Of a stretch of DNA of 64,000 bases, positions 9,216 through 9,626 are shown piece by piece. The DNA is from a phage. The stretch lies in NCBI GenBank assembly GCA_014685065.1, contig GCA_014685065.1_4092.1. One strand, written 5' to 3'. The position numbers and the translations under genes are program-made. Each line of letters starts with the position of its first letter. Positions within the stretch are counted from its first letter, which is position 1. Under the pieces are notes generated by a model, which worked only from the letters and a program-made list of their open reading frames with translations, did no database searches and had not been told where the DNA came from.

Positions 9216-9626
9216 ATGATTGAAATGGAAGGAACTCTGGTGTATGATCCAGACCGTGGCACTATGAAAAAGAAGAAGGACTTCTGGTTAGTACTGCAAC
9301 TTCCATTACAGTTGGTTAGATACTACCAGTACTTCATCAGAACTGATTTACATATTGACGTTAAAGATCCTCAATGGGGAGCACATGTTAGTATAGTGCG
9401 TGGTGAAGTACCACCACATGAAGAGTTCTGGAAAAAATACGATGGAATGAAAGTAAAGATAAAGTTCAATCCTTGTATTGAGATAGTAAAAGATAAAAAG
9501 AATCCAGGTTCATTCTTTATCATTGAATTTGAAGATGATTTCATCACACACATTAGAAACGAACTAGGACTACCAACCAAGTACTTTAAATATCACATAA
9601 CTGTAGGTAGAACCTACTACGATTAA
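9216..9626 (+). CDS. putative 2H-phosphoesterase-fold protein (two H-x-S/T motifs)
   Basis: GAHVSIV and YHITVGR motifs ~70 aa apart. Confidence 0.35.
   Translation: MIEMEGTLVYDPDRGTMKKKKDFWLVLQLPLQLVRYYQYFIRTDLHIDVKDPQWGAHVSIVRGEVPPHEEFWKKYDGMKVKIKFNPCIEIVKDKKNPGSFFIIEFEDDFITHIRNELGLPTKYFKYHITVGRTYYD

Follow-up and report, generated by a model that had tools for sequence, protein, structure and literature searches.

The 2H Gene and Its Surroundings

We focused our attention on the open reading frame found at positions 9216–9626 (+ strand) of the window, that is, of the whole 64-kb stretch of DNA analyzed in this work. The DNA of the window comes from an Escherichia jumbo phage, one of the 121Q/PBECO4 type within Asteriusvirus and the Rak2-like group; positions 8000–11000 of the window are 99.2% identical to positions 252396–255396 of phage 121Q. 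The frame starts with ATG, ends with a stop codon that is included in the coordinates, and codes for a stand-alone protein of 136 aa, hereafter the 2H protein, which resembles the 2H phosphoesterase domain of the Swiss Army Knife type (2H-SAK). It coincides with the RefSeq coding sequence PBI_121Q_531, labelled "hypothetical protein", and its product has 100% identity to 121Q gp531. Moreover, the protein is contained in PHROG 12204, a group without assigned function, and a search for a second family member showed that the 121Q genome holds exactly one.

The gene is tightly packed with the upstream frames on the same strand, the nearest of which, a small one, ends 7 nt before it; downstream, a spacer of 135 nt leads to a LysM-lysozyme gene. 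Scans for promoters and terminators around the gene did no better than on shuffled sequence, with 6 promoter-like sites where 7.4 were expected, and no tRNA genes were found in the 64-kb window. The same-strand block, shared by 121Q and the window, has the order 2H, LysM-lysozyme, HPF/RaiA, four small frames, CCA-adding enzyme, NudE-type Nudix, glutaredoxin and macro. The HPF/RaiA ribosome-associated (hibernation) factor (10738–11070, + strand; Pfam Ribosomal_S30AE, E = 4.2e-9) keeps its position in Serratia phage BF, and would bring in a theme of translation maintenance to which the 2H gene may be linked. The CCA-adding tRNA nucleotidyltransferase (12670–13782, + strand; Pfam PolyA_pol, E = 5.1e-19, and PolyA_pol_RNAbd), 3 kb downstream of the 2H gene, is a candidate functional partner of the 2H protein; Pfam detected no HD domain in it, and its orthologue in phage BF is annotated as 'multifunctional ... 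2'3'-cyclic phosphodiesterase/phosphatase'. The NudE-type Nudix hydrolase (13890–14291, + strand; Pfam NUDIX, E = 1.1e-12, and RefSeq annotation) could possibly serve in ADP-ribose clean-up. In addition, the macro (Appr-1''-p processing) domain protein (15121–15597, + strand), which lies 5.5 kb downstream of the 2H gene and carries that name in RefSeq, gives a weak match to Pfam Macro (E = 0.009; its 16.4 bits fall short of the 22-bit cutoff), and may be a partner in ADP-ribose phosphate processing.

Elsewhere in the 121Q genome are genes for Rnl1 (gp438), for a Pnkp with AAA_33 and HAD_PNKP domains (gp443), and for RlaP (gp506). Whole-genome phmmer searches of 121Q for YqeY, HAD_SAK_2, Thg1, PTH2, the BF-type RNA ligase, TROVE and DUF2828 found none of them, the positive controls having worked; therefore, the associations with these genes described below for other genomes cannot be claimed for 121Q. 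Outside the window, positions 220175–223604 of 121Q (20175–23604 of our locus L039) hold a cluster of Sir2, Nudt16-like Nudix, cREC, membrane protein and PIN/PhoH genes, which corresponds to the sirtuin-centred RNA-repair neighbourhood described previously (PMC9503650), and no 2H gene was found beside this cluster.

Two Conserved Motifs

The earlier note on this DNA had pointed to two H-x-S/T motifs, AHVSIV and YHITVGR, about 70 residues apart in a protein of 136 aa, a description that holds for the exact frame and for the positions of the motifs. The first putative catalytic motif, A-H57-V-S59-I-V (residues 56–61; positions 9381–9398, + strand), is followed by R62-G63 and falls on the predicted strand E57–62, and the second, Y-H127-I-T129-V-G-R (residues 126–132; positions 9591–9611, + strand), falls on the predicted strand E126–132. 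H57 and H127 are separated by 70 residues, and are the only two of the five histidines of the protein that stand in an H-x-S/T context. A pair of such motifs in a 136-aa protein is in principle nothing unusual; in this case, however, it goes beyond chance, since the 2H frame alone, among the 57 six-frame window ORFs of 100–200 aa, carries a pair spaced by 55–100 residues, and since the motifs are conserved in homologues, the latter being the weightier of the two arguments.

Conservation was assessed in a diverse alignment of 134 homologues with 25–65% identity, in which H57 and H127 are the only invariant columns. Every sequence (134/134) carries S or T at position 59 and T or S at position 129, and most keep G63 (122/134), R62 (109/134) and G131 (120/134). 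Among 27 close homologues, H57, R62, G63, H127, T129, G131 and R132 are all invariant. The residues flanking the two H-phi-S/T-phi motifs (H57-V-S-I and H127-I-T-V) are hydrophobic, and the family has signatures of its own, namely a conserved N-terminal YDP...W and W72-K-K-Y.

Assignment to the 2H Phosphoesterase Superfamily

Membership of the 136-aa protein in the 2H phosphoesterase superfamily is well supported by sequence comparison and by a predicted structure. A Pfam search with the query matched a single family, PF22547 (Swiss Army Knife, 2H phosphoesterase domain), with an E value of 1.2e-5. Precomputed PF22547 matches exist for 24 of 28 close homologues, a homologue with 97% identity has a match to PF22547.3, and the UniRef name of the orthologue from a Yersinia phage is that of a 'Swiss Army Knife 2H phosphoesterase domain' protein. 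On the broader scale of the diverse alignment, 118 of the 134 members matched 2H-SAK (E ≤ 0.1; best, 1.2e-9), and bacterial members of the family scored 27.0 and 29.7 bits against it. For homologues, the entries in Pfam and UniProt already imply this domain assignment, which comparative genomics had anticipated (PMC7824862); comparative studies had also noted that jumbo phages encode 2H enzymes.

At the level of the family profile, an internal duplication with one motif per half is detectable: hhalign of residues 1–70 against residues 71–136 of the family alignment returned a probability of 81% (E = 1.2e-5), with HVSIVRG placed on HITVGR. The AlphaFold2 model, built with confidence from an alignment of 27 sequences (pLDDT 89.3, pTM 0.82), has the order strand-strand-helix-strand twice, and the final strand of each repeat bears one of the motifs. 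Its predicted bilobed alpha/beta fold could be superimposed on solved 2H enzymes, with modest TM-scores of 0.39–0.45 in the Foldseek matches to 2H folds. The 2H fold put forward in the earlier note is thus borne out by the 2H-SAK match, the internal duplication, the conservation of the motifs and the AlphaFold2 model; moreover, the structure prediction that had been proposed there as a check, in which the lack of a bilobed fold would have spoken against the idea, gave a predicted 2H fold with AlphaFold2, with which Foldseek agrees. By sequence, no solved structure is detectable within the family, as PDB sequence searches in which the protein and two family profiles served as queries gave nothing meaningful, the best hits (E = 0.3–1.2) being unrelated proteins.

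Distribution of the Family

A tblastn search with the 2H protein found 77 phage records, and among the matches listed all genomes are larger than 300 kb. These include Rak2-like phages of Escherichia, Klebsiella, Salmonella, Erwinia, Yersinia, Serratia, Cronobacter and Pectobacterium, together with more distant matches (27–35% identity) in Vibrio phage 2.275.O, Agrobacterium phage Atu_ph07, Bacillus phage G and Ralstonia phage RsoM2USA. An exhaustive profile search collected 1,162 clusters (50% identity) at E ≤ 1e-3, and most of the best 150 of these 1,162 clusters are stand-alone proteins of 130–170 aa. In addition, a scan with a narrower alignment located the family in some bacterial genomes, namely those of Lysobacter, Tahibacter, Paenibacillus, an Acinetobacter MAG, and others. 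Overall, the 2H protein represents a large clade whose members are 2H enzymes standing alone and come for the most part from jumbo phages. What has been a "hypothetical protein" of at least 77 sequenced jumbo phages and of more than 1,000 metagenomic protein clusters can be placed in a specific enzyme class.

Gene Neighbourhoods in Other Lineages

We then compared the neighbourhoods of the 2H gene in other members of the family. The 121Q block is conserved in Serratia phage BF. There, genes for an RNA ligase and a DUF2828-DUF7788-vWA protein closely precede the 2H gene, and HPF, the CCA-adding enzyme, Nudix, YqeY and macro follow it, the whole set spanning no more than 9 kb. A CCA-adding enzyme is also found near the 2H gene in Vibrio phage 2.275.O, together with tRNA genes, and in the metagenomic locus L024, where the order is PTH2, 2H, HAD_SAK_2 (with a 4-nt overlap) and CCA-adding enzyme. 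A further HAD_SAK_2 gene lies 1.7 kb downstream of the 2H gene in L030, a locus that also holds NAMPT, NAD kinase and NADAR. Moreover, Thg1 is encoded 1–2 kb downstream of the 2H gene in L031 and L032, an RNA_ligase gene lies upstream of it and HD_4 beside it in L026, and cREC adjoins it in L033. The two metagenomic phages with Thg1 downstream also carry Pfam Acb5 (PF26761) genes 4–8 kb upstream of the 2H gene (L031, 336–575; L032, 3652–3903).

Ro60/TROVE and YqeY genes recur as well. In the Ralstonia phage RsoM2USA, Ro60/TROVE is directly upstream of the 2H gene, and in the Acinetobacter MAG, Ro60/TROVE, AAA and 2H genes follow each other in a row as an operon. Counting the related DUF2828-vWA genes, such neighbours were noted in RsoM2USA, the Acinetobacter MAG, Serratia phage BF and one metagenomic phage; the genes beside or near 2H lie at 4442–5908 of L021, 2964–4664 of L049, 5987–7513 of L022 and 12643–15020 of L032. 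The YqeY domain, which is common to GatB of the aspartyl/glutamyl-tRNA amidotransferase, is fused to a 2H domain in a metagenomic protein of 335 aa (P0034), and free-standing YqeY genes are located within approximately 2–5 kb of the 2H gene in Serratia phage BF, Atu_ph07 and a metagenomic phage (L023), the distance in Atu_ph07 and L023 being no more than 2 kb. Coordinates of YqeY genes are 12729–13136 in L022, 6845–7303 in L019 and 5827–6270 in L023.

A second group of neighbours is related to ADP-ribose and NAD. In Bacillus phage G, Atu_ph07 and Serratia phage BF, as well as in 121Q, macro or PARG genes are found no more than 6 kb from the 2H gene, and NADAR, NAMPT, NAD synthase, ART-PolyVal and DUF4326 genes recur near 2H genes. 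Neighbourhoods are heterogeneous, and these genes are about as frequent among the 2H neighbours as those acting on RNA ends. The association of the 2H gene with RNA and tRNA repair genes is suggestive, resting on its repetition across lineages and not on statistics.

A Putative Role in RNA and tRNA End Healing

We favor for the 2H protein a function in RNA or tRNA repair, in which it would heal ends that carry a 2',3'-cyclic phosphate, a proposal drawn from sequence and gene context to which we give about half of our confidence. It is favored because repair-gene neighbours (CCA-adding enzyme, HAD_SAK_2, Thg1, PTH2, RNA ligase and Ro60/TROVE) recur in independent lineages. In 2H enzymes, two histidines work as general acid and general base, independently of metal, on a cyclic phosphodiester; by analogy with this established chemistry, H57 and H127 would form the acid/base pair of the protein and would likewise act on a cyclic phosphodiester without metal. 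Judging from the gene neighbourhoods, the substrate may be the 2',3'-cyclic phosphate on the 3' ends of tRNA or other RNA. Such ends would originate from metal-independent host ribonucleases, e.g., anticodon nucleases and toxin RNases, cutting the translation apparatus during infection. The 2H enzyme would open the cyclic phosphate to a monoester, which would then be removed by a phosphatase, namely the HAD domain of Pnkp (gp443) in 121Q or HAD_SAK_2 in other phages, after which the CCA-adding enzyme encoded 3 kb downstream could rebuild the end, or Rnl1 (gp438) could seal it. The 2H step would then be the end-healing step of phage RNA/tRNA repair, a form of counter-defence that would keep translation running. 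This proposal is in agreement with Iyer et al., who assigned jumbo-phage 2H enzymes to the clearing of 2',3'-cyclic ends for RNA ligases (PMC7824862; PMC9503650).

Several observations count against end healing. The 121Q 2H gene adjoins no repair gene, its distance from the CCA-adding enzyme being 3 kb and that from Rnl1 and Pnkp approximately 50 kb. The phosphatase domain of T4 Pnkp removes 2',3'-cyclic phosphates, and 121Q has a Pnkp of the T4 type; therefore, a separate cyclic phosphodiesterase is not strictly needed in that pathway. The heterogeneity of the neighbourhoods and the similar frequency of NAD/ADP-ribose genes weigh in the same direction, as does the fact that the best single structural match of the predicted model is Acb1.

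The CCA-adding enzyme provides a possible place for the 2H step. The HD domain of the E. coli CCA-adding enzyme reportedly has both 2',3'-cyclic phosphodiesterase and phosphatase activities, as Yakunin and colleagues are said to have described in 2004. The phage enzyme is without a detectable HD domain, and therefore a separate 2H enzyme could supply the cyclic-phosphodiesterase step. More tentatively, and with a doubt that exceeds our confidence, it is possible that the 2H enzyme supplies this step in trans within an undescribed route of phage tRNA-end repair, which would comprise a phosphatase (Pnkp-HAD or HAD_SAK_2), an HD-less CCA-adding enzyme or, for 5' ends, Thg1, and RNA-binding partners of the YqeY or Ro60 type guiding the enzyme to its substrates, and which would reverse the action of host nucleases that clip tRNA ends. 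If RNA repair is indeed the function, Rak2/121Q-like phages would have more tRNA-repair steps than the classical Pnkp-Rnl1 pair of T4, and the recurring 2H-YqeY and 2H-Ro60 links would hint at substrate selection.

Comparison with Known 2H Families and Alternative Activities

At the family level, sequence comparison indicates that the 2H protein is neither a LigT nor an Acb1, and that its closest relative is probably the Pfam 2H-SAK family. Of the "LigT/Acb1-like" label given in the earlier note, the placement in the 2H superfamily stands, and membership in the LigT or Acb1 families does not, as the query matched the models of neither. The protein and 2H-SAK share a short 2H domain (approximately 124 positions in PF22547) with the same two motifs, and in L024 and L030 the 2H gene has an HAD_SAK_2 gene beside it or nearby. 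The two differ in that the query remains below the gathering cutoff (26.0 against 27 bits), with only residues 87–136 aligned, and in that it stands alone, whereas the SAK domain of RNA repair is reportedly part of a multidomain kinase/phosphatase/ligase protein, an architecture attributed to the Pfam description and to Burroughs and Aravind (2016). In 121Q, the comparable modules, Pnkp and Rnl1, are encoded some 50 kb from the 2H gene, and in L024 HAD_SAK_2 is adjacent to it.

Regarding LigT/ThpR (PDB 5LDI, 4QAK and 1VGJ), the query was without a match to PF02834, PF13563 or TIGR02258 in Pfam or NCBIfam, and weak matches among the 134 members amounted to eight for LigT_PEase and seven for 2_5_RNA_ligase2. 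LigT proteins have 170–185 aa, so that the 136-aa query, with its motifs 70 residues apart, is approximately 40 residues shorter.

Acb1 (T4 gp57B; PF23474; PDB 7T26/7T27) deserves closer attention, since it is the top structural match. No sequence relationship was found: none of the 134 family members matched PF23474 at E ≤ 0.1 (the positive control, T4 57B, gave 2.7e-60), and hhalign of the family against T4 57B returned a probability of 1.6%. The query had no match in NCBIfam, but T4 Acb1 was likewise missed there, so that NCBIfam cannot test Acb1 membership. Identity in the structural alignment is 13%, and the genomic partners are different from those of Acb1. Nevertheless, an Acb1-like counter-defence would fit the structural match: the protein would hydrolyze cyclic or 2'-5'-linked oligonucleotide immune messengers, e.g., the cGAMP or cyclic trinucleotides of CBASS, the cOA of type III CRISPR, or 2'-5' oligoadenylates, in such a way that host effectors are never activated. 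We regard this activity as unlikely; if true, it would reveal a second, sequence-unrelated family of phage 2H enzymes destroying immune messengers.

As to the genomes themselves, phmmer detected no T4-type Acb1 in 121Q, and Yersinia phage fHe-Yen9-04 has an Acb1-named protein separate from its member of the 2H family. The 60–75 kb region of T4 (NC_000866; L034) contains macro tk.4, lysozyme e, nudE, tRNAs, 57B (Acb1, a 2H enzyme) and dNMP kinase, and the gene content of the window at 9216–18359 is loosely similar, with the 2H gene, lysozyme, nudE, macro and dNMP kinase. We considered gp531 as a positional equivalent of T4 57B, and rejected this idea on the grounds of a different gene order and of no sequence similarity.

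The ADP-ribose and NAD genes in the neighbourhoods suggest another activity, that of a phosphodiesterase for Appr>p (ADP-ribose 1'',2''-cyclic phosphate), the product of which would feed the macro-domain phosphatase and the Nudix hydrolase. Its substrate could come from NAD-dependent removal of RNA 2'-phosphates, by a KptA/Tpt1-like enzyme or the phage Sir2 system, or from host ADP-ribose-based signalling. We consider this quite unlikely, and slightly more so than the hydrolysis of immune messengers: Acb1, ns2, Usb1 and LigT all match the structure better than Appr>p CPDase does, no KptA/Tpt1 gene adjoins the 2H gene in any locus examined, and jumbo phages in general commonly carry genes of NAD metabolism, so that the proximity of such genes may be background. 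Moreover, the YqeY, Ro60, CCA-adding enzyme and Thg1 links point to RNA substrates. An Appr>p role and RNA end healing could, however, coexist in one enzyme.

The 2',5'-phosphodiesterases of coronaviruses (ns2) and rotaviruses (VP3), as well as Usb1, resemble the protein at the fold level only, with 8–16% identity. We know of no counterpart in E. coli of the 2'-5' oligoadenylate and U6 snRNA tails on which these enzymes act. Finally, some other 2H activity or a non-catalytic role, such as Usb1-like 3'-5' exoribonuclease trimming of RNA 3' ends to cyclic phosphates, a reversed 2'-5' RNA ligase, or nucleotide binding without turnover as in AKAP18, is the least probable of all, as the presence of both H-x-S/T motifs in every sequence (134/134) speaks for catalysis, and as nothing in the gene neighbourhoods suggests snRNA-like trimming. 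Whether the 2H protein heals RNA ends, as we favor, or destroys immune messengers, the outcome would matter for the use of jumbo coliphages in phage therapy and for the inventory of counter-defence genes.

In addition to the 2H locus, two very long frames were noted in the window, at 39772–45297 (− strand; 1841 aa) and at 57735–63944 (− strand; 2069 aa), the latter of which runs on into 121Q gp582, a virion structural protein. Outside the window, positions 117089–131255 of 121Q (L037) hold 14 consecutive minus-strand genes, 13 of which are annotated as RCC1-like 'DNA condensation' paralogues.
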